A stretch of DNA of 64,000 bases from an uncultured Bacilli bacterium. GTDB lineage: Bacteria > Bacillota_I > Bacilli_A > RF39 > UBA660. The notes beneath the pieces were generated by a model that saw only the letters and a list, made by a program, of their open reading frames with translations, had not been told where the DNA came from and made no database searches. Every line of letters begins with the position of its first letter. The first letter of the stretch is position 1. A program made the position numbers and the translations under genes. Of this stretch, positions 1 through 53,529 are shown in pieces. The DNA is taken from NCBI GenBank assembly GCA_934120265.1, contig CAKOTU010000001.1, forward strand, positions 5,395 through 69,394, given 5' to 3'.

Positions 1-155
1 AAGAACTTGCTGATGTTTTGAATTATTGTATTCAAATGGCAAACAAATTGGGTGTTGATCCTAAACAAATAGTGTTAGAAAAAATGGAAAAGACAGCAAA
101 AAAATATCCTGTGGAAAAATCAAAAGGGAATAGTACAAAATATACGAAGCTGTAG
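1..155 (+). CDS. MazG-like nucleotide pyrophosphohydrolase, C-terminal fragment (5' end outside window)
   Basis: Frame 3 reads ELADVLNYCIQMANKLGVDPKQIVLEKMEKTAKKYPVEKSKG... to TAG at 153-155. The ELADVL...KLG.D....V..K..K..KKYP pattern is typical of the C-terminal helices of MazG/dCTPase-type all-alpha NTP pyrophosphohydrolases. The stop lies 9 nt before the next start. Confidence 0.6.
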   Translation, partial: ELADVLNYCIQMANKLGVDPKQIVLEKMEKTAKKYPVEKSKGNSTKYTKL

Positions 156-164
156 GAGGTAGTT

Positions 165-1868
165 ATGTCTAAAATTAGTACATTAAAATTTAATGAAGGT
201 ACTTCTGCTTTATTAAAGACTAAAAAATTTGGAACTAATTGGCCTGTTGTATATATTATAAATAACAATAAAGAAGCGTATATAGGTGAAACGACCGATG
301 TGAGTATTAGATCTAATCAACACTTGGCAAATGAAGCGAGAAGAAATTTAAGTAAAATTAATGTAATAGGTGATGAAACATTCAATAAATCAGCAATATT
401 GGATTTAGAATCATTTTTAATTAAATATATGTCTGCAGATCAAAAATTTAAGTTGCAAAATGGGAATGGTGGTTTACAGAATCATAATTATTATCAAAGA
501 GAAATGTATGAGAAAAAATTTAGAGAAATATGGTTACAATTGAAATCAAAAGGATTAGTTCAACATGATTTAAAACAGATTGCCAATTCAGATTTATTTA
601 AATACTCTCCATATAAAGCATTAACAACTGATCAATATATGATAGTAAATAGTATTCTTTCGGATCTTGCTGATTTGGTAAATAAAAGAGAACCAGGAAC
701 CTTTGTTGTAGAGGGTGGGGCAGGAACAGGAAAAACAATACTTGGTATTTACATCTTGAAAATGTTATCACAAGCAAAAGATGCTTCCCAAATTGAAATA
801 GAAGAAGATCAGGTTGAACAAAATTTATCTGAAATATTAAAAATTAATGATGCTGTAGATGATTTAAAAATAGGATTGGTTATTCCTATGGAAAATTTAA
901 GAAGTACATTAAAGAAAGTATTTAGAAACATTAAGGGGTTAAAATCTAACATGGTATTAAGTCCTAATGATGTTGGCAAGAGTGACGAAAAATATGATTT
1001 GCTAATTGTTGATGAAGCTCACAGATTAAGAAGAAGAAGGAATCTTACTCAATACAGAACATTTGATAAAAATAATAGAAAAATGAATTTAGGTAATAAG
1101 GGAACTGAGTTAGACTGGATTTTATTAAAAAGTAAATATCAAATATTTTTCTATGATGAGGATCAATCTATTAAACCAACTGATGTTAGAAAAGAAGATT
1201 TTGACAAATTAATGATAAAAAAGAACTATCATCCTTATCATTTAACAGCTCAATTAAGATGCTTAGCAGGTGGCAATGAGTATATAGATTATGTAAAAGC
1301 AATATTCAGTAATAATCCACCAAAAAAGAGAATGAATTTTAAAAACTATGATTTAAAAATGTTTGATAATGTTAATGATATGATTGAAATTATAAAAGAA
1401 AAAGACAAAGAATATGGATTGTGTAGAAATATTGCGGGATATGCATGGCCTTGGAATTCTAAGGGAAAAAAAGAACCTCTTCACTCAAACAAGAATACTT
1501 TAGAAAACGGATTATATGATTTAGAAATAGACGGATATAAATATATATGGAATTCACAAGCACATGATTGGATTAATTCATCAAACTCAATAAATGAAAT
1601 TGGAAGTATACATACTACTCAAGGATTTGACTTAAATTATACAGGGTTAATTATAGGAAATGAATTAAAATATGATAATAAAAATAATTGCTTTACTGTT
1701 GATAAAAAGAATTATTATGATACAAAAGGCAAGGCTAATGCAACAGATGAAGAATTATTAAAATACTTATTAAATATTTATTGTACGATGATGACTCGTG
1801 GAATGCTTGGAACATATATTTACGTATGTGATGAAAATTTAAGAAAGTATCTAAAAAAATATATATAA
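165..1868 (+). CDS. GIY-YIG nuclease domain fused to a DUF2075 (Schlafen-group-3-like) P-loop ATPase/helicase domain
   Basis: The N-terminus WPVVYIINNNKEAYIGETTDVSIRSNQH fits GIY-YIG. Walker A is GGAGTGKT and Walker B is LLIVDEAHRL. The C-terminal TTQGFDLNYTGLIIG and MTRGMLGTYIY resemble the SF1-like motifs of DUF2075 proteins. RBS GGAGG lies at 155-159. Confidence 0.75.
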   Translation: MSKISTLKFNEGTSALLKTKKFGTNWPVVYIINNNKEAYIGETTDVSIRSNQHLANEARRNLSKINVIGDETFNKSAILDLESFLIKYMSADQKFKLQNGNGGLQNHNYYQREMYEKKFREIWLQLKSKGLVQHDLKQIANSDLFKYSPYKALTTDQYMIVNSILSDLADLVNKREPGTFVVEGGAGTGKTILGIYILKMLSQAKDASQIEIEEDQVEQNLSEILKINDAVDDLKIGLVIPMENLRSTLKKVFRNIKGLKSNMVLSPNDVGKSDEKYDLLIVDEAHRLRRRRNLTQYRTFDKNNRKMNLGNKGTELDWILLKSKYQIFFYDEDQSIKPTDVRKEDFDKLMIKKNYHPYHLTAQLRCLAGGNEYIDYVKAIFSNNPPKKRMNFKNYDLKMFDNVNDMIEIIKEKDKEYGLCRNIAGYAWPWNSKGKKEPLHSNKNTLENGLYDLEIDGYKYIWNSQAHDWINSSNSINEIGSIHTTQGFDLNYTGLIIGNELKYDNKNNCFTVDKKNYYDTKGKANATDEELLKYLLNIYCTMMTRGMLGTYIYVCDENLRKYLKKYI

Positions 1869-1870
1869 AA

Positions 1871-1902
1871 AAGTTTATAAAAAATCTTTATAAACTTTTT
1901 TT
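1871..1902. terminator. bidirectional rho-independent terminator between convergent genes
   Basis: Perfect 11-bp stem, AAGTTTATAAA (1871-1881) with TTTATAAACTT (1887-1897), and a 5-nt loop. An A-run precedes it and a T-run follows. Confidence 0.7.
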
Positions 1903-1907
1903 ATACA

Positions 1908-2474
1908 TTAAAGTATTTTATCAATAATACCATATTCTAGGGCTTCATGAGCATCTAAGAAATAATCTCTTTCGGTATCAAGTTCAACTTTTTCTAATTT
2001 TTGTCCAGTATTTTTAGCAAGCATTCTGTTAAGTTTATTTTTAAGCTTAATAATTCTTTCTGCTGCAATTTTTATTTCTGTAGCTTGACCTTGTGCACCA
2101 CCTAAAGGTTGATGAATCATTACTTCACTATTTTCTAAACAACATCTTTTTCCTTTTTTTCCACAGCTTAATAAAAATGCAGCCATACTAGCAGCCATAC
2201 CAATACAGATAGTAGATACATCACTTTTTATAAAGTTCATAGTATCTAATATGGCCATACCAGCAGTTACCGATCCTCCTGGGGAATTAATATATAAACT
2301 AATATCATTATTATTAATAGAATCTAAATATAAAAGTTCTGCTACAACAACATTAGCAACTTCATCAGTTATTTCACCACTAAGAATTACAATTCTATCT
2401 TTTAAAAGCCTTGAATAAATATCATAGGCACGTTCATAATTATTATTTTTTTCCACAATAGTAGGTATAATCAT
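1908..2474 (-). CDS. clpP: ATP-dependent Clp protease proteolytic subunit
   Basis: Full-length ClpP pattern: [20 protein letters not shown], catalytic Ser in GMAASMAA and His in MIHQPLGG. Confidence 0.95.
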
Positions 2475-2591
2475 TTTATCATCTCCTAATGTTATAATAG
2501 TGTTAATAAAGTAAATTTATACATGAAAAAAAGTGACAAAATACTTAAAATTTGTTAAAATGTAATTGTAAAAATAGAAAAGAGGAACATA

Positions 2592-3596
2592 ATGATAAAA
2601 GTAGCAATTAATGGTTTTGGAAGAATTGGTAGATTAGTATTTAGAATTATGGAAGAAGATCCAGAGTTTGAAGTAGTTGCAATTAATGATTTAACAGACG
2701 CTGAACAACTTGCATATCTTTTAAAATATGATACTAATCATCGTAACTATCGTGTTAATGATATAAGTTTTGAAGGTAATGAAATTATTGTAGGAAATAG
2801 AAGAATTAAAGTATTCGCTGAAATGGATCCTACTAATTTACCATGGGCTGAATTAGGCGTTGATGAAGTGTTTGAATGTACTGGACATTTTACAAAGAAA
2901 GAAGCAGCAATGGCTCATATTACAGCTGGTGCTAAAAAAGTTATTATTTCCGCACCTGCTAAAGGAGATTTAAAAACAATTGTTTATAATGTTAATGAAG
3001 ATATCTTAGATGGAACTGAACAAATTATAAGTGCTGCAAGTTGTACAACAAACTGTCTTGCTCCGGTTGCTAAAGTAATTAATGATGAATTTAAAATAGT
3101 AAAAGGATATATGACTACAGTTCATGCTTATACAAATGATCAAACTATTCTTGATGTAGCTCATAAAAAAGGAATTAAAGCTCGTCGTGGACGTGCTGGA
3201 GCAATGAATATAGTGCCATCTTCTACAGGAGCTGCTAGTGCTTTAGGATTAGTTATTCCTGACCTTGCTGGGAAATTAGATGGAAGCGCATTACGTGTTC
3301 CAACTCCTACAGGCTCAGTTGTTGATTTAACACTAGAGTTAGGACGTAATACAACCGTAGAAGAAATAAATAATGTAATAAAAAGTCATACTAGTGAAAC
3401 ATTAGGATTTACAATGGATCCAATTGTTTCTACAGATATTATTGGTTCACATTTGGGTGGACTTGTTGATGGACTTCTAACTAATGTTTTAGAAGTAGAC
3501 GGAAAACAATTAGTTAAAGTAGTTGCGTGGTATGACAACGAGATGGGATATAGTTCCCAAATGGTTAGAACTGCTAAATATTTAATGAAAAAATAA
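2592..3596 (+). CDS. gap: glyceraldehyde-3-phosphate dehydrogenase (type I)
   Basis: INGFGRIGRLVFR Rossmann N-terminus, catalytic SCTTNCLAP and WYDNEMGYS. Confidence 0.95.
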   Translation: MIKVAINGFGRIGRLVFRIMEEDPEFEVVAINDLTDAEQLAYLLKYDTNHRNYRVNDISFEGNEIIVGNRRIKVFAEMDPTNLPWAELGVDEVFECTGHFTKKEAAMAHITAGAKKVIISAPAKGDLKTIVYNVNEDILDGTEQIISAASCTTNCLAPVAKVINDEFKIVKGYMTTVHAYTNDQTILDVAHKKGIKARRGRAGAMNIVPSSTGAASALGLVIPDLAGKLDGSALRVPTPTGSVVDLTLELGRNTTVEEINNVIKSHTSETLGFTMDPIVSTDIIGSHLGGLVDGLLTNVLEVDGKQLVKVVAWYDNEMGYSSQMVRTAKYLMKK

Positions 3597-3659
3597 AAAA
3601 GAGGCTAAGAACTCTTTTTTATATTGAAAAAAATTGATATAATGGATATGGTGATAATT

Positions 3660-4682
3660 ATGAAAAATAAAAGAGCGTTTACACTAATTGAAATGATTGG
3701 AATTATAACTATTCTAGCATTAATCATGTTAATAGCGTTGCCATCAATGACTAAAACATTAAAAAGAAATGAACAAAAGAAATATGATAACTATATAAAT
3801 AATTTAAAATTAGTTTCAGAAAATTATTTAGTTGATCAATTACAAAAAAAGAATGTCACTTTTAATAATGACGTGACGTATTTTAGCTTGGGTGATATCA
3901 TTGACGCTGGGTATGTAAAAGACGTTATAACAAATCCTAATAATGATAAAAAGATATCAAGAGATACAAGGATTAAAGTTACACAAAATATAGATAGTAC
4001 ATATTCGTTTGAAGTTCAAGAATATTATAATAATATTTCAGATTATAATAAAGAAGATTTGATAATACACTATGATGCAGTTAAGTATACCGGAGGAAGT
4101 AAGTTTATAAATAATACAAATGAGGTAGACTATGATTTAGGAAGTAATGTGACTTGGACGGAAGATGGAATGTTGTTTGAAAACCAGACTGCTCCCGTTA
4201 TAGATTTAAATAAAAAGTATTCTACAGATAGTATTACTGTTAGTTTTAATGTTAAAAGTTTAGATGAATTAGGAAGCTGTGGTAGTTGTTATACTTGGCC
4301 TTTATATCTAAATAATTATGATAGTTCAACAAACAGTGAGACGATAACACAGTTTGCTTTTAGAAAATCAGTTTTCTTGCTTTATGGTAGTGGAAATAAC
4401 ACAGTTTTAAATTCAACTTCTTTAGAAAAAAATAAAAATTATACTATCACATTTGTTCAAGAAGGCTTAACAACAAGAAGAGTATATGTTAATGGTAAAT
4501 TAGCAAATAATTTATCATCAAAAACAGGCTTAAGTTTAAGTACTATAGTTTATAATAGAATACAGTTAAGACCAAAACTATATGATTTAAAAATAAATAA
4601 TCTATTAATCTATAATAGAGCTTTATCTAGTGATGAAGTACAAACTTTATATAATCTTGATAAAGAGAGATTTGGGGAATAA
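3660..4682 (+). CDS. prepilin-type N-terminal cleavage/methylation domain protein with C-terminal LamG (concanavalin A-like lectin) domain
   Basis: MKNKRAFTLIEMIGIITILALIMLIALPS is a class III (type IV pilin) signal. The C-terminal ...LIYNRALSSDEVQTLYN is the characteristic end of Laminin_G_3-type domains. I prefer the ATG at 3660 to the track's TTG at 3624. Confidence 0.75.
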   Translation: MKNKRAFTLIEMIGIITILALIMLIALPSMTKTLKRNEQKKYDNYINNLKLVSENYLVDQLQKKNVTFNNDVTYFSLGDIIDAGYVKDVITNPNNDKKISRDTRIKVTQNIDSTYSFEVQEYYNNISDYNKEDLIIHYDAVKYTGGSKFINNTNEVDYDLGSNVTWTEDGMLFENQTAPVIDLNKKYSTDSITVSFNVKSLDELGSCGSCYTWPLYLNNYDSSTNSETITQFAFRKSVFLLYGSGNNTVLNSTSLEKNKNYTITFVQEGLTTRRVYVNGKLANNLSSKTGLSLSTIVYNRIQLRPKLYDLKINNLLIYNRALSSDEVQTLYNLDKERFGE

Positions 4683-4683
4683 T

Positions 4684-5868
4684 ATGAAAAAAACAATAAG
4701 AGATTATGATTTAAATAATAAAAAAGTAATTATTAGATGTGATTTTAATGTTCCCATCAAAGATGGAAAAATAACTGACGATAATCGAATTAAAGAAAGC
4801 CTAGAAACTATTAAATATGCTATGGATAATAATGCTAAAGTAATATTAATGTCTCATCTAGGAAGAGTAAAGACAGAAGAAGATAAAAAGGATAAATCTT
4901 TAAAAGTTGTAAGTGATAGACTAAGTGAATTATTGAAAAAGCCTGTTATTTTTGTTGACGTAACTCGTGGTGAAAAGCTAGAGTCAGCAATTAATAACAT
5001 GAAATCTCAAGATGTATTACTTATGGAAAATACTAGATATGAAGATGTTGATGGTAAAAAAGAAAGTGGAAATGATTTAGAACTCGGAAAGTACTGGGCA
5101 TCACTAGGTGACATATTTATTAATGATGCTTTTGGTACTTGTCATAGAGCTCATGCTTCTAATGTGGGTATAGCGTCACATCTTCCAAGTGGTATAGGAT
5201 TTTTAGTAGAAAAAGAATTAAATGTTTTGGGAAAAACATTAGAAAACCCTAGCAGACCTTTTGCTGTTATTCTTGGTGGTTCTAAAGTTAATGATAAAAT
5301 AAAAGTAATAGAAAATCTTGTTACTAAAGCTGATTACATATTAATTGGTGGTGGAATGGCTTTTACATTTTTAAAGGCTAAAGATATAGAAATAGGTAAA
5401 TCAATATTAGATGAAGAAAATATTTCATTTTGTAAAGAAATGATGAATAAGTATCCTGATAAAATAATTTTACCAATTGATACTGTTTGCAGTAAAAAGA
5501 TAGATGAAGAATCAGAATTTGAAAATAAATTTATTACAGATTTAAAATCGGATGATATAGGACTAGATATTGGTTTTAATACTGTTAAGTTATTTTGTGA
5601 ATATTTAAGTGAATGTAAAACAGTGATATGGAATGGCCCTGTTGGTATGTGTGAACTAAAAAATTATCAAGATGGCACTAAAAAGTTATGTGAATTTTTG
5701 TCAAAACTAAATTCTAGTGTTATAATTGGTGGAGGAGATACCGCTGCCGCAGTAATATCATTAGGATATAAAGATAGTTTTACGCACATTTCTACAGGTG
5801 GAGGAGCTTCCTTAGAATTAATGGAAGGAAAAGTTTTACCGGGAATTGATATAATAAATGAAAAATAG
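4684..5868 (+). CDS. pgk: phosphoglycerate kinase
   Basis: KKVIIRCDFNVP, MSHLGR and the C-terminal STGGGASLE motif. The ATG at 4684 follows the upstream stop by 1 nt; the track ORF's extra 18 codons overlap the previous gene. Confidence 0.95.
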   Translation: MKKTIRDYDLNNKKVIIRCDFNVPIKDGKITDDNRIKESLETIKYAMDNNAKVILMSHLGRVKTEEDKKDKSLKVVSDRLSELLKKPVIFVDVTRGEKLESAINNMKSQDVLLMENTRYEDVDGKKESGNDLELGKYWASLGDIFINDAFGTCHRAHASNVGIASHLPSGIGFLVEKELNVLGKTLENPSRPFAVILGGSKVNDKIKVIENLVTKADYILIGGGMAFTFLKAKDIEIGKSILDEENISFCKEMMNKYPDKIILPIDTVCSKKIDEESEFENKFITDLKSDDIGLDIGFNTVKLFCEYLSECKTVIWNGPVGMCELKNYQDGTKKLCEFLSKLNSSVIIGGGDTAAAVISLGYKDSFTHISTGGGASLELMEGKVLPGIDIINEK

Positions 5869-47494: not shown

Positions 47495-47503
47495 TAAGTT
47501 AGA

Positions 47504-47624
47504 TCTTATAAAGAGTGATGGAGGGACTAGCCCAATGAAGTCACACCAACCTATTTAATTAGGTGGTAAAGCTAGAGCGATAAGATAACTTTTCACACTC
47601 AAGAGTTATCTTGAGTGTTTTTTT
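47504..47624 (+). promoter_or_regulatory. SAM-I (S-box) riboswitch with expression-platform terminator
   Basis: TCTTATAAAGAGTGATGGAGGGACTAGCCCAATGAAGTCACACCAACC...GGTGGTAAAGCTAGAGCGATAAGA carries the conserved S-box core and P1 pairing (TCTTATA/ATAAGA). The terminator is CACTCAAGA/TCTTGAGTG plus T7 at 47596-47624. The competing antiterminator is AAGATAACT (47582-90) with AGTTATCTT (47604-12). Confidence 0.85.
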
Positions 47625-47649: not shown

Positions 47650-48675
47650 ATGAAATTTTATAGTAATGAAATAGTATTTAGAGGTCATCCTGATAAAGTA
47701 TGTGATCAAATAAGTGATGCTATTTTAGATGAGTGTTTAAGACAAGATAAAACTTCAAGATGTGGAATTGAAGTAGTAGGTGGAAAGGGAAAGATATTTG
47801 TAACTGGTGAAATAACTAGTAATGCAAAATTTGACTTAACTAATATTGTAAAAAGAGTGTTAAAAGATATTGGTTATAATGATAATTATGAAATTATTGA
47901 TAATATTGGAAAACAAAGTCAAGATATTGCACTTGGAACTAATGTAGAAGTAGGCGGAGCAGGAGATAATGGAATGATGTTTGGTTATGCTTGCAAAGAT
48001 ACTAAAGAATTATTGCCAAAAGCCATGGTAATATTACAAAAACTAAGCGAAGAATATGATAAATTAGTTCATAGTGATGAAAGATTTTGTGCTGATGGAA
48101 AAGCTCAAATTACAGGTGTTTATGACGAACATAATAAACTAATAAAAATTAAAGATTTTACAGTATGCTATCAAAATACTGAAAAAGAAAGAGAAAAAAC
48201 AGATGAAATAATAAAAGAAATCTGTGATAAAATTTGTAAGGAATACAATGTGGAAGTAGAAACATATTTAATAAATCCTACTGGTAGATTTGAAATTGGT
48301 GGATTTGATGGTGACGCTGGATTAACAGGAAGAAAAATAGTTGTTGATAGTTATCAATCATTTGCTAATGTTGGTGGAGGGGCATTCTCTGGAAAAGACC
48401 CAAGTAAAGTAGATAGAAGTGGTGCTTACAAAGCAAGAGAAATAGCTAAAAAAATAGTATCTTCAAATGATAAATATGAATGGTGCCAAGTACAACTATC
48501 ATATGCAATAGGAATAGAAGAACCATTAGCAATCTATATTGAAACAAATTTAGGTAATATAGAAGTTGATAAAGAATTATATGAAGAGTGTAAACCAAGA
48601 AATATTATAAAAGATTTAAATCTTTTAAATGAGCACTATGAAGAAAGAGCTAAATTTGGTCATTTTAGAAACTGA
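47650..48675 (+). CDS. metK: methionine adenosyltransferase (S-adenosylmethionine synthetase), short form of 341 aa
   Basis: GHPDKVCDQISDAILD, GAGDNGMMFGYA, DGKAQIT, NPTGRFEIGG and GGGAFSGKDPSKVDRSGAY. Confidence 0.9.
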   Translation: MKFYSNEIVFRGHPDKVCDQISDAILDECLRQDKTSRCGIEVVGGKGKIFVTGEITSNAKFDLTNIVKRVLKDIGYNDNYEIIDNIGKQSQDIALGTNVEVGGAGDNGMMFGYACKDTKELLPKAMVILQKLSEEYDKLVHSDERFCADGKAQITGVYDEHNKLIKIKDFTVCYQNTEKEREKTDEIIKEICDKICKEYNVEVETYLINPTGRFEIGGFDGDAGLTGRKIVVDSYQSFANVGGGAFSGKDPSKVDRSGAYKAREIAKKIVSSNDKYEWCQVQLSYAIGIEEPLAIYIETNLGNIEVDKELYEECKPRNIIKDLNLLNEHYEERAKFGHFRN

Positions 48676-48779
48676 TTAGTGACAAATTTAAAAACATTTT
48701 CGTATAATTAATACGTAAAGGTAGTAATTTACCCTAAAAATATTATAATCAAGTAAAAGTAGACAATTATTTAAAATAA

Positions 48780-49040
48780 TTAATATTCTTAAATTGAATA
48801 GGTGTTCAATAGTTAAGAGCATATTGAGACCTTTCATTATTAAAATAATAGATGTAATCTTCAATAGATTTAAAATATCATTAGAATCATTAATTTTAAA
48901 ATCAATGAATAATTCTTCTTTAATCCAGCTATTAATGGCTTCCATAGCACCATTTTCGGTAGGAGAGCCTGGCTTAGAAGTAGAATGTATGATATTATAT
49001 AGATGTAAAGATTCATTGAATCTTTTAGTTACCACCAAAA
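48780..49040 (-). pseudogene. IS3-family transposase (OrfB, rve integrase core) C-terminal relic
   Basis: The minus-strand translation ...STSKPGSPTENGAMEAINSWIKEELF... matches the conserved S.....G.P.DN..ME.F...LK.E segment of IS3/IS150 transposases. The N-terminal ~250 aa are absent and the downstream frame is degenerate. Confidence 0.6.
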
Positions 49041-49069: not shown

Positions 49070-49099
49070 TTGGCAAATGCTTCTGGGGGGGGGGTATAA
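49070..49099 (+). promoter_or_regulatory. promoter of the pilin-like gene with a homopolymeric G tract in the spacer
   Basis: TTGGCA at 49070-75, an 18-nt spacer (AATGCTCT plus G10) and TATAAT at 49094-99. RBS AGGAGGAG and the ATG at 49133 follow. Confidence 0.6.
49084..49093. repeat. G10 homopolymer
   Basis: Counted directly: ten consecutive G at 49084-49093, in a window where G/C runs longer than 4 are otherwise essentially absent. Confidence 0.95.
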
Positions 49100-49132
49100 T
49101 TTATAAAGAAAGTAAGATTAGGAGGAGTTAAA

Positions 49133-50521
49133 ATGAAGAAGAAAAATGCTTTCACTTTAATAGAATTACTAGCGGTAATAGTAGTATTAGCAATAATAGC
49201 CTTAATAGCAACCCCAATAGTAATGAATACAATTAAGAATGCAAAGAAAGGAGCAGCTGAGAGAAGTGCGGATAGTTACATAAAACAAGTAGAAACAGTA
49301 GTAGCAACCGAAAGACTTGAAGGAAACATCTTAGAAGGTGAATATATAATTCAATCAGATGGGAATTTATGCCCACTATCAGGATGTGGAGAAAATGATA
49401 AAGACAAAATTATTGTTGAGATGGAAGGAAATAAACCAACAGGTGGAACAATAACAATAAATAATGGTCAAGTAACAACAGATTCAACAATGACAATAGG
49501 AGAATATGATGTAAGTTATGATGAAACAACAAATAAATATGTTGCCACAAAATTAGAAACATATTCTATAACATATAATCTAACAAATGTAAGTGGAGAT
49601 AATAGTAATGGATCAAGTATAACAACAAAAGATGTAAAGACATTAAAGTTTACATCAAATAAAGGATATCGTTTACCAGAAAGTGTAACAGTAACAGGAG
49701 CAACAAATGTATGGGATAAAACTACCGGAACATTAACATTATCCAAAGTAACTGGTGATGTAACTGTAACAATAGTAGGAGAAGAAATGCCTCCATATAA
49801 AAATGGAGAAGTAGTGTATTTTAATGTAACAACAGGAGAAAAATGCTTGTCATCAGATTATACAGAAACTCAAAGTAATACAGGAGTAAAAGAAGGCTGT
49901 ATGAAATTCTATGCATTTAATGATGATGGAAAAGATACAGTAAATTTAATACTAGATCATAATACAACTGCATTAGTTGCATGGAATTCAAGCAGAAGTA
50001 GTGTAAATGGTCCAAAAGAAGTATTAGACAAATTAAAAAGTGATACATCATCATGGCAAGGAACTATAACACCAGCAAATTATACGATGGATCAAACAGG
50101 AAAAACAAGTAAAGCAAAATATACAATAGATTATAGTAGTTATAAAGCAAGATTAATAACAGCTGATGAAGTTGCACAAATTACAGGGAATACTTCTTGG
50201 GATGAAAAAACTGCTAGTAATTATTATTACTTGGATAGTAAAACAACAACTGCAAGTACAACATGTAAAAGTGGAGATACTAGCGGATGTAAATATGGAT
50301 GGTTATATGATAGAACATATACAGGTTGTACAAAATATGGATGTTTAAATAATTCAGATCAAGTAACATCAGGCTATTGGACAGCATCTTCTGATGCTTT
50401 CATCTCTTACTACGCTTGGCACGTGCGTTACGGCGCTAACGTGAGTAGCAACGTCGTTTCCGATTCGAGCGAAGACGGTGTCCGCCCAGTTATAACTATC
50501 TCAAAATCACAACTAGGATAG
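49133..50521 (+). CDS. prepilin-type N-terminal cleavage/methylation domain protein with Thr/Ser-rich repeat-like middle region and DUF1566 (Lcl C-terminal, lectin-fold)-like C-terminus
   Basis: MKKKNAFTLIELLAVIVVLAIIALIATPIV is a class III signal. The C-terminal ...SGYWTASS....AW.V.Y.........DGVRPV follows the DUF1566 pattern YW[ST]S..(n)AW.V.F..G(n)VR.V. Confidence 0.75.
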   Translation: MKKKNAFTLIELLAVIVVLAIIALIATPIVMNTIKNAKKGAAERSADSYIKQVETVVATERLEGNILEGEYIIQSDGNLCPLSGCGENDKDKIIVEMEGNKPTGGTITINNGQVTTDSTMTIGEYDVSYDETTNKYVATKLETYSITYNLTNVSGDNSNGSSITTKDVKTLKFTSNKGYRLPESVTVTGATNVWDKTTGTLTLSKVTGDVTVTIVGEEMPPYKNGEVVYFNVTTGEKCLSSDYTETQSNTGVKEGCMKFYAFNDDGKDTVNLILDHNTTALVAWNSSRSSVNGPKEVLDKLKSDTSSWQGTITPANYTMDQTGKTSKAKYTIDYSSYKARLITADEVAQITGNTSWDEKTASNYYYLDSKTTTASTTCKSGDTSGCKYGWLYDRTYTGCTKYGCLNNSDQVTSGYWTASSDAFISYYAWHVRYGANVSSNVVSDSSEDGVRPVITISKSQLG

Positions 50522-50528
50522 ATTTTAT

Positions 50529-50558
50529 AAACATGAATTCTTTTATTCATGTTTTTTT
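50529..50558 (+). terminator. rho-independent terminator after the pilin-like gene
   Basis: AAACATGAAT / ATTCATGTTT 10-bp stem with a 6-nt loop, followed by a T-run. Confidence 0.8.
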
Positions 50559-50599
50559 GTGTATCAAATTATGATAAAATATAACAAGTGGTGATAAGT

Positions 50600-52602: not shown

Positions 52603-53529
52603 ATGAATAATGAAATTGTATTATTTGAAAATCAAAATGTAAAGTTGGAGGTGAATGTTAATGATGAGACAGTTTGGCTTACTCAAAATCAGATGGCACG
52701 GTTATTTGATAGAGATATTAAAACTATTAGTAAACATATTATAAATGTTTTTGAAGAAGAACTAGACAAGGAAAGCAATTCTCAAAAAATGAGAATTGCA
52801 AATTCTGATAAACCAGTTACTTATTATAATTTAGATGTAATAATAAGCGTAGGGTATAGAGTAAAAAGTAAAAACGGAATAGTATTTAGAAAATGGGCCA
52901 ATAAAGTATTAAAAGATTATTTGATAAAAGGATATGCTATAAATAATAAAAGACTAGAATATTTAGAAAAAACAATTAAATTAATAGATATAGCAGGAAG
53001 AATAGATGAAGAATTAAATGGCAATGAAGCAAAAGAAATAATAAGAGTTATAAATGATTATTCAAAAGGATTAGATTTATTAGATGATTATGATCATAAA
53101 AGAATAGTAAAACCTAGTGGTACTGTTAATGATAAAAAGATAAGTTATGAAGAATGTATAGAGATAATAAATAAATTAAAATTTAATAATGAAAGTAATT
53201 TATTTGCTAGAGAAAGAGATGAAGGGCTAAAAAGTATTATAGGAGCAATATATCAGTCATATGATAGCTTAGATTTATATAAAACAGTAGAAGAAAAAGC
53301 AGCTAATTTTTTATACTTGATAGTAAAGAATCATGTCTTTATAGATGGAAATAAAAGAATAGGAGCAACACTTTTTATATATTTTTTAAGATATTATAAT
53401 TTATTATATATTGAAGGAAAACAAGTAATAGATAATAATACACTAGTTGCCTTAACTCTTTTAATAGCCCAATCTAATCCTAAAGAAAAAGAAATATTAA
53501 TTGATTTAGTTATGAATTTTTTTAGTTGA
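52603..53529 (+). CDS. RhuM-like N-terminal domain fused to a Fic/Doc (death-on-curing) domain
   Basis: The N-terminal VWLTQNQMARLFDRDIKTISKHI...VISVGYRVKSKNGIVFRKWA matches the RhuM virulence-protein family. The C-terminal HVFIDGNKRIGA is the Fic/Doc motif H-x-F-x-[DN]-[GA]-N-K-R. Confidence 0.75.
   Translation: MNNEIVLFENQNVKLEVNVNDETVWLTQNQMARLFDRDIKTISKHIINVFEEELDKESNSQKMRIANSDKPVTYYNLDVIISVGYRVKSKNGIVFRKWANKVLKDYLIKGYAINNKRLEYLEKTIKLIDIAGRIDEELNGNEAKEIIRVINDYSKGLDLLDDYDHKRIVKPSGTVNDKKISYEECIEIINKLKFNNESNLFARERDEGLKSIIGAIYQSYDSLDLYKTVEEKAANFLYLIVKNHVFIDGNKRIGATLFIYFLRYYNLLYIEGKQVIDNNTLVALTLLIAQSNPKEKEILIDLVMNFFS

Follow-up and report, generated by a model that had tools for sequence, protein, structure and literature searches.

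A prepilin-like gene with a GC-rich 3' end

The window analysed here is a stretch of 64,000 nucleotides from an uncultured Bacilli bacterium of the RF39 lineage (contig CAKOTU010000001.1 of GenBank assembly GCA_934120265.1, positions 5,395 to 69,394). It holds a gene for a pilin-like surface protein that ends in a short GC-rich, adenine-poor patch, which an earlier note made from the sequence alone had taken for the variable region (VR) of a diversity-generating retroelement (DGR). This gene, its patch and the DGRs of related lineages are the subject of the present analysis. L-numbers denote related loci, P-numbers homologous proteins and MSL a MutS-like protein; TR and RT stand for template repeat and reverse transcriptase, and IMH for initiation of mutagenic homing. 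The gene and its parts are as follows.

49133..50521, + strand: target gene, encoding a 462-aa pilin-like surface protein in which a prepilin N-terminus, a long helix and beta-rich middle domains precede the lectin-like C-terminal domain with the VR
49133..49210, + strand: prepilin-type cleavage/methylation motif, MKKKNA followed by FTLIELLAVIVVLAIIALIATP; Pfam PF07963 (N_methyl), residues 1-26
49775..50518, + strand: C-terminal ligand-binding domain, residues 215-462 (248 aa), probably C-type-lectin-like; isolated AlphaFold model
50387-50489, + strand: VR, TCTTCT...CGCCCAG, colinear codon by codon with the TRs of the related DGRs L250, L217 and L254
50477..50508, + strand: 3' boundary, with GC-rich GGTGTCCGCCCAG (50477-50489) at the end of TR-VR homology, then the VR-specific IMH-like flank TTATAACTATCTCAAAATC

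The patch (50408-50491; 84 nt, 28 codons) lies in frame at the 3' end of the open reading frame (ORF) 49133-50521 (+). It has 57.1% G+C and 19.0% A, against 26.7% G+C and 39.9% A in the whole window, and its codons end in C (14), T (8), G (4) or A (2), whereas third positions in the remainder of the gene are A (239), T (143), G (30) or C (23). The hand counts given earlier for these codons (about 57% G+C, about 19% A, 14 of 28 ending in C and two in A) were exact. When an 84-nt frame was slid across all 64 kb, a G+C content of at least 50% was reached in one block only, 50366-50514, and that of the patch was matched by just 0.014% of frames, every one of them inside this block. The TR-homologous span, 50387-50489, is slightly larger than the codon list first singled out, and the hypervariable codons lie within about 50393-50477.

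The N-terminus of the protein matches Pfam N_methyl with 29.3 bits (cut-off 21.2; E 5.8e-7), and residues F7, T8, L9, E11, L12 and L13 are invariant across 93 homologues. The features of a type IV pilin-like protein, namely Phe+1, Glu+5 and a hydrophobic helix, are all present (...NA followed by FTLIELLAVIVVL...; modelled helix 9-62). An AlphaFold model of the full protein built with the 93 homologues (pLDDT 87) comprises this helix, beta-rich domains and a C-terminal alpha/beta domain, with the VR at the extreme C-terminus. A fold search with the full-length model was dominated by Ig-like matches, and the isolated C-terminal model alone was informative. This model, of residues 215-462, has a pLDDT of 92 and a pTM of 0.90. 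Its sole significant PDB match was the Thomasclavelia ramosa IgA peptidase 9qa6 (prob 0.99, TMq 0.49), for which the aligned residues of 9qa6 are not visible; the N-terminal domain of that enzyme has been described as C-type-lectin-like and as resembling the C-terminal domain of Legionella Lcl (PMC12237041). Neighbours of the domain among the predicted viral structures of BFVD were DUF6273, tail-fibre and receptor-binding proteins of phages, and neither Mtd, TvpA nor similar proteins occurred among the structural matches listed for it.

No match was obtained in a PDB sequence-profile search. Pfam Lcl_C (formerly DUF1566) was matched neither by the full protein (E up to 1) nor by the C-terminal domain (E up to 0.1), and a homologue from L251 matched it weakly at its very C-terminus (14.1 bits against a cut-off of 34.9; E 0.059). 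Of the earlier assignment to a DUF1566/lectin-like domain, the lectin-like fold is backed indirectly, by the model match to 9qa6 and the published description of that enzyme, and the Pfam family is not called on the protein; 'DUF1566-like' would denote at best a fold-level resemblance, not family membership.

The most likely fate of the protein is export, prepilin processing and display, either on a type-IV-pilus-like fibre or as its tip, where the variable ligand of the lectin-like domain would be, for instance, a host glycan, mucus, a phage or another microbe. The domain order points this way, as does the analogy with the Type V pilus adhesins that DGRs diversify in Bacteroides (bioRxiv 10.1101/2024.11.15.621889). 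No pilus assembly genes are present among the window ORFs annotated (1-11 kb and 39-57 kb); in the relative L254, a family member has T2SSE and TadE genes nearby.

The homologue family and complete retroelements in its relatives

A search of 5.8 billion proteins recovered more than 3,800 homologues, nearly all from human or animal gut metagenomes and almost none of them named. Their C-termini share an invariant frame, GYWT.SS ... AW.V ... G[VI]RPVI, in which nearly every cluster has its own set of intervening residues. A single contig may carry several of these dispersed genes, which sit between housekeeping genes (for example pheS, glyS, ileS, priA and polA), usually with no RT within 10 kb; the window contains one family member. 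The family was not found in IMG/VR or in GenBank phages.

The mutational signature of the family was derived from 16 VR DNAs of the same length as the window VR. Across their 19 hypervariable codons, mean entropy is 1.56, 1.62 and 0.97 bits at codon positions 1, 2 and 3, respectively, and third positions are 60% C, 33% T and 4% A, compared with 41% A, 41% T and 7% C in the 25 codons just upstream. On these codon statistics, scrambled first and second positions with a third position fixed as a pyrimidine are the reverse of ordinary protein evolution. The AAY-to-NNY pattern thus points to adenine-specific mutagenesis of AAC and AAT codons, which is the signature of a DGR.

A family gene with an almost unmutated, Asn-rich VR (RAANSNYAWRVNYNGNVISLNVDNNNRNGIRPVI; proteins P0114, P0117 and P0120) occurs intact at L002 7806-7897. 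Five metagenome contigs encode P0114 without a single residue changed, and the four of them that are shown come each from a different sample. This VR could have homed with little mutagenesis or could represent an ancestral state.

Complete DGR cassettes were reached through a scan of metagenome contigs with the C-terminal domain, which led to AAC-rich non-coding copies downstream of family genes and then to L235, where such a copy is followed by a MutS-domain-I-like ORF that served as the query. In L250-L252, the order is target (372 aa), conserved leader, TR, RT-14-like RNA, MSL (MutS_I), bAvd, RT (RVT_1, 350 aa), second target (380 aa) and polA. The RT-14-like RNA directly after the TR (L250 1008-1157, +) matches the full Rfam model RF02921 with 36.3 bits (E 0.003), below the gathering score of 48.1, and is presumably a structured spacer RNA of the L250 DGR. 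A second conserved, hairpin-rich leader lies upstream of the L250 TR (about 740-860) and has a weak sraA match (E 0.011). In L247-L249 and L253-L256, the order is MSL, bAvd, RT and TR. A more distant relative, the uncultured Bacilli metagenome-assembled genome L012, carries a complete DGR at 140-3883, with a 559-aa prepilin-like target, an AAC-rich TR, two small ORFs and a 323-aa RT; a single TR (1851-1928) serves both VRs of this target (1062-1139 and 1671-1748), which lie in a duplicated C-terminal module. L012 came from a full-length-alignment contig scan seeded on the generic prepilin motif, in which matches were mostly to unrelated pilins.

The DGR is demonstrably active in the species of L250 and L251, to judge from a comparison of these two samples: they share the same TR, and their adjacent VRs depart from it at 14 and 19 adenines. 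The single TR-VR mismatch outside adenines in this pair is located past the end of homology. Similarly, the VR of L255 differs from its TR at 24 adenines and at no non-A position inside the VR. The second targets of L251 (3789-4628) and L250 (3145-4287) have completely different C-terminal halves, of which only the last ...CCCAGTTATAGAAG... of the VR flank is kept, and the L250/L251 locus is, as read from the two assemblies, rearranging within the species.

The window VR can be compared directly with the TRs of such relatives. Positions 50387-50489 align codon for codon with the TRs of L250, L217 and L254, including the scaffold codons TCT, GCT TGG, GTG, TCG and GGT GT. CGC CCA G. Where all three TRs have A (29 positions), the window has another base at 15, against 6 of the 43 positions at which all three share one non-A base (Fisher's exact p = 0.0012). 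Five of these six non-A differences are third-position changes. Against each heterologous TR, the window VR has 17-21 non-A mismatches, and the TRs differ among themselves by 17-24.

The 3' boundary is equally conserved. In every relative, TR-VR homology stops exactly at ...CGCCCAG, which bears out the GC-rich closing (IMH) segment that had been proposed for the patch. At this boundary, the TRs of L250, L251, L247, L253 and L255 read ...CGCCCAGATT... and the VRs ...CGCCCAGTTATAAC...; past it, VRs continue with TTATAAC..TCTCAAAATC and TRs with ATTTCC.... The flank in the window is of the VR type and equals the flank of the active L250/L251 target at 25 of 26 bases (read by eye).

These data bear on whether the patch could be a compositional mosaic that arose without retrohoming, either because horizontal transfer or recombination introduced a GC-rich segment or because amino-acid selection on a binding loop shaped the codon usage. 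Recombination tracts are real in this gene, as the orthologous locus L258 described below demonstrates; seven 5' VR codons lie inside one, and the gene has an insertion sequence (IS) relic next to it. Neither transfer nor selection, however, predicts variable first and second positions with a third position fixed as C or T, mismatches concentrated at template adenines, colinearity with real TRs beside RT genes, or a GC-rich island that stops exactly where TR-VR homology ends, and an origin of this kind is highly improbable. Family hypervariability at exactly this place, colinear TRs in the complete DGRs of relatives and the activity of the L250/L251 element all uphold the original identification of the patch as a DGR VR. 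There is thus strong reason to hold that it was written by DGR retrohoming.

Stasis of the variable region and probable loss of retroelements

No TR was detected in the 64-kb window by an A-tolerant scan of both strands or by blastn with the L250 TR, no RT by a motif scan, phmmer with the L012 RT or tblastn with the L250 RT, and no MSL or Avd by tblastn with the L250 cassette. These searches agree with the previous reading that RT, Avd-like gene and TR are all absent from this stretch. An anchored TR pattern derived from the VR had no match on viral contigs; a fully degenerate pattern, allowing the VR base or A at each position, was discarded as it matched only poly-A runs there.

The VR is also static in the lineages compared. 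It is identical in all three members of the 90% cluster of the window protein and in L257, a locus from another study that is 99.91% identical to the window over 6.76 kb. L258, from a lineage 4-6% diverged, holds the orthologous metK - IS - pilin - ABC-F locus, with flanks 93.8-96.5% identical. In the 3' two-thirds of the VR, from GCT TGG onwards, L258 differs from the window at only three positions, all of them synonymous third positions, a level of drift equal to that of the flanks. Seven codons in the 5' part of the VR also differ, inside a tract of 73-82% identity that reaches about 240 nt upstream into non-VR sequence, and along the gene as a whole identity alternates between 73-82% and 95-98%. 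The 5' difference is best read as a recombination mosaic between paralogues. Partial retrohoming was rejected as its source, given that retrohoming rewrites from the 3' end and that the difference extends about 240 nt upstream of the VR. In L258, the pilin-like gene is split into ORFs of 112 aa and 341 aa.

Across ten 90% clusters sampled from many people, each has 0-3 variable VR columns, compared with tens elsewhere; the one exception, with 35, is due to two truncated members. Ongoing diversification of the window VR at adenine-templated positions was therefore not seen in the cluster members, L257 or L258, and VR invariance with synonymous drift alone indicates that the VR has been static since before the compared lineages split. 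The strain comparison suggested earlier, which looked for variation confined to these codons, thus yielded a VR identical in the cluster and in L257, and in L258 a 5' difference from paralogue recombination rather than retrohoming. The accompanying rule, that a segment invariant among strains would be a mere mosaic, proved too strict, since the segment is invariant in the compared strains yet DGR-written, as a fossil.

Several related loci suggest how a target may come to be stranded. At L217 8440-8570, an AAC-rich copy has the 5' leader of a TR and the 3' flank of a VR (...PVIEVLRSKLI*), with polA directly after it. L232 7441-7813, L233 5592-5980 and L006 8872-9146 are likewise hybrids with a TR-like start and a VR-like end, and their crossover points differ. 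These fragments occupy the place held by MSL, bAvd, RT and target 2 in L250, with no MSL, Avd or RT beside them. The interpretation of the AAC-rich copies downstream of the family genes in L217, L232, L233 and L006 as stand-alone TRs was rejected on account of their VR-type 3' flank (IEVLRSKLI*) and, in L217, the polA gene that follows. A TR and a downstream VR form direct repeats, such that recombination between them would delete exactly the genes in between, and the hybrid fragments look like scars of TR x VR recombination that removed the retroelement. A second route of decay is apparent in L247 (10721-11833), L248 and L249, three independent assemblies in which the RT has an in-frame stop at codon 51 and MSL, bAvd and TR look intact; this DGR has probably been inactivated recently. 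By these gene contents, DGR decay is frequent in the clade, which makes an orphaned target in the window lineage plausible, though unproven given that 64 kb were examined.

The same hybrid fragments can be enlisted for a different account, in which the VRs of the family owe their diversity chiefly to gene conversion, with paralogues and truncated 3' cassettes as partners in the style of pilin antigenic variation, and the DGR has a minor or ancestral part. Promoter-proximal truncated 3' gene fragments do lie downstream of full genes in L217, L232, L233 and L006, identical VRs occur in proteins otherwise more than 10% different (for example P0065/P0068 and P0024/P0078), and L258 is a mosaic. The truncated fragments combine a TR 5' flank with a VR 3' flank at the place of MSL, Avd, RT and target 2, however, and are better read as deletion scars. 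Gene conversion moreover reshuffles existing variants and does not create the AAY-to-NNY pattern. As the main source of VR diversity in the family, it is very unlikely.

A more serious contender is that the VR remains an active remote target, rewritten in trans, rarely or under unsampled conditions, by an intact DGR (TR, MSL, bAvd and RT) elsewhere in the chromosome. The near-identity of its IMH-like flank to that of the active L250/L251 target, the dispersal of family genes usually lacking an RT within 10 kb, as expected of trans targets, and the good preservation of C-ending codons in an AT-rich genome are all in line with this possibility. Remote targets and action in trans are also established for chromosomal DGRs, including targets >100 kb from the RT (PMC5758913). 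Against it stand the identity of the VR in strains of different studies, with only synonymous drift in the lineage 4-6% diverged, the invariance of VRs within almost all 90% clusters although many people were sampled, and the frequent decay of DGR cassettes in this clade; two samples of the active-DGR species, in contrast, already differ at many adenine sites. An active remote target is accordingly considered unlikely, if less so than gene conversion.

The patch is thus probably a fossil DGR VR in a pilin-like adhesin gene, now orphaned or at least a long-dormant remote target. This interpretation sustains the remote or orphaned target proposed at the outset. That the patch is now a frozen, orphaned or dormant target is likely, with less assurance than that retrohoming wrote it. 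Five points weigh against this interpretation. The search covers 64 kb only, so that a DGR elsewhere in the genome is possible. The cognate TR of the window was not found, and with 17-21 non-A mismatches to the TRs of relatives there is no direct TR-VR proof in this genome. The IMH-like flank is intact, so the site may remain competent for retrohoming. Stasis is drawn from one near-clonal strain, two other cluster members and one sister lineage, and consensus assemblies hide rare subpopulation variants. Finally, the lectin-like fold comes from one PDB match with its aligned residues not visible, and Lcl_C/DUF1566 has no match on the window protein.

In mechanistic terms, the fossil interpretation implies past retrohoming in an ancestor of the lineage and loss of the DGR from this genome. 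The RNA of an AAY-rich TR would have been reverse-transcribed by the DGR RT, aided by bAvd and MSL, with random bases placed opposite template adenines, and the cDNA would have replaced the VR up to the GC-rich ...CGCCCAG boundary. Mutagenic retrohoming of this type would account for the NNC/NNT codons, the loss of A and the A-avoiding scaffold codons (GCT TGG, GTG, GGT GTC CGC CCA), which together make a GC-rich island in an AT-rich genome. Orphaning may then have followed either route suggested by the relatives, namely deletion of MSL, Avd and RT by recombination between the TR and a downstream VR, or a nonsense mutation in the RT. Present variation in the lineage would stem from many dispersed paralogues with different frozen VRs, from recombination among them and possibly from promoter phase variation.

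A broader proposal, possible though doubtful, is that in this clade of uncultured gut Bacilli the DGR acts as a 'hit-and-run' generator, which writes new binding tips into a growing set of pilin-like adhesin genes scattered among housekeeping genes and is repeatedly lost, by TR x VR recombination or RT nonsense mutation, leaving a frozen germline VR repertoire to be exploited by paralogue recombination and homopolymer promoter phase variation. If this holds, it would constitute a two-stage variation system, analogous to building an antigen-receptor library and then selecting from it.

The analysis ties a very large and essentially unannotated family of pilin-like proteins from uncultured gut Bacilli to a DGR and identifies its C-terminal patch as the ligand-binding tip. 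It also indicates that a GC-rich, A-poor island of NNY codons in an AT-rich genome marks a DGR target even without the retroelement; annotation pipelines that demand a nearby RT will miss such targets, and strain-tracking methods should not presume that such patches are hypervariable. Active, nonsense-mutated and TR x VR-deleted, the related loci form a natural series, which shows a route to orphaning and the persistence of DGR-written sequence.

Flanking features and comparison with known systems

Three further elements flank the gene, and a few other features lie elsewhere in the window.

49070..49100, + strand: promoter-like TTGGCA, 19-nt spacer with a G10 run (49085-49094) and TATAAT, read from the sequence
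50529..50560, + strand: AT-rich hairpin AAACATGAAT...ATTCATGTTT followed by a T run, read by eye
48688..49038, - strand: remnant of an IS3-family transposase (its C-terminal end), immediately upstream of the gene; rve_3 match with E 0.0026, short of the Pfam cut-off

The G run in the promoter spacer is G10 in the window and G9 in L257, the only indel in 6.76 kb, and could be either a phase-variation switch or a homopolymer assembly error. The hairpin at 50529-50560, which a terminator scan did not list, its stem having too few G-C pairs, is probably the terminator of the gene. It may also aid retrohoming, by analogy with Bordetella phage BPP-1, in which a hairpin downstream of the VR has this role. 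The IS3 relic reported earlier is real, as L258 has an intact 297-aa rve IS3-family transposase (4148-5041) at this site, between its metK and pilin genes, though the relic's own match is weak and falls below the cut-off.

A second prepilin-like gene of the window, at 3684-4682 (+; MKNKRAFTLIEM...), encodes a Laminin_G_3/concanavalin-A-like lectin domain and has no DGR-type patch. It lies between gap (2592-3596) and pgk (4630-5868), inside a glycolytic gene cluster. Upstream of metK (47650-48675) is a SAM riboswitch (47503-47586, +; 63.5 bits). A 308-aa ORF (52603-53529, +) lies downstream of the ABC-F gene, and the product at the matching position in L257 matches Pfam Virulence_RhuM and Fic.

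No natural system other than DGRs is known to hypermutate proteins in a targeted way in bacteria, and the highest density of DGRs known is that of the human gut. The DGR of phage BPP-1 (Mtd, TR, Avd and bRT) performs adenine-specific mutagenesis of AAY codons in the C-terminal VR of a lectin-fold receptor-binding protein; TR-VR homology there closes on its 3' side with a GC-rich element, beyond which lies a VR-specific flank. Its adenine mutagenesis and GC-rich 3' boundary are consistent with the TR/VR pairs of the relatives described here. Unlike the present system, it is phage-borne and active, has a single adjacent target and lacks an MSL.

The chromosomal, non-phage DGR of Treponema denticola, with TvpA and seven remote targets, resembles the present case in placing the VR at the extreme C-terminus of a C-type-lectin-fold surface protein and in having paralogous targets scattered far from the RT (PMC5758913). 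Its cassette has an HRDC accessory gene rather than an MSL, and its targets are lipoproteins rather than prepilin-like proteins; in the window, by contrast, RT and TR are absent from the 64 kb and the VR looks frozen. The MSL-type architecture of the relatives is already known as 'architecture D' (Wu et al. 2018; PMC5758913). Their gene set of MutS-domain-I-like MSL, bAvd, RT and adjacent TR equals that of the MSL-containing DGRs of Legionella pneumophila and some Bacteroides (PMC5758913; bioRxiv 10.1101/2024.11.15.621889), from which the window differs in its host, a low-GC uncultured gut Bacilli bacterium, in its prepilin-like target and in the absence of the cassette genes from it.

The Type V pilus DGRs of Bacteroides likewise belong to gut commensals and diversify the adhesive end of pilus subunits (bioRxiv 10.1101/2024.11.15.621889), though in Type V pili of Bacteroidota, whereas the Bacillota protein has a type-IV/GspG-type prepilin N-terminus. 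Resemblance to Lcl_C and the N-terminal domain of the T. ramosa IgA peptidase lies in the position of 9qa6 as best structural neighbour and in the weak Lcl_C match of a homologue at its very C-terminus; the window protein itself has no such Pfam match, and its domain of about 248 aa compares with an Lcl_C model of 117 positions. A GspG-type pilin domain has received a one-line mention as a rare VR-holding domain (PMC11661182), and a literature search found no paper on the family or on DGR targets of gut Bacilli with type-IV prepilin N-termini. All mechanistic elements thus match known DGR biology, and what appears to be new is a family of type-IV-prepilin targets in gut Bacilli. A less familiar angle would be the combination of a huge dispersed family with DGR-written frozen tips, repeated DGR loss by TR x VR recombination and possible promoter phase variation.

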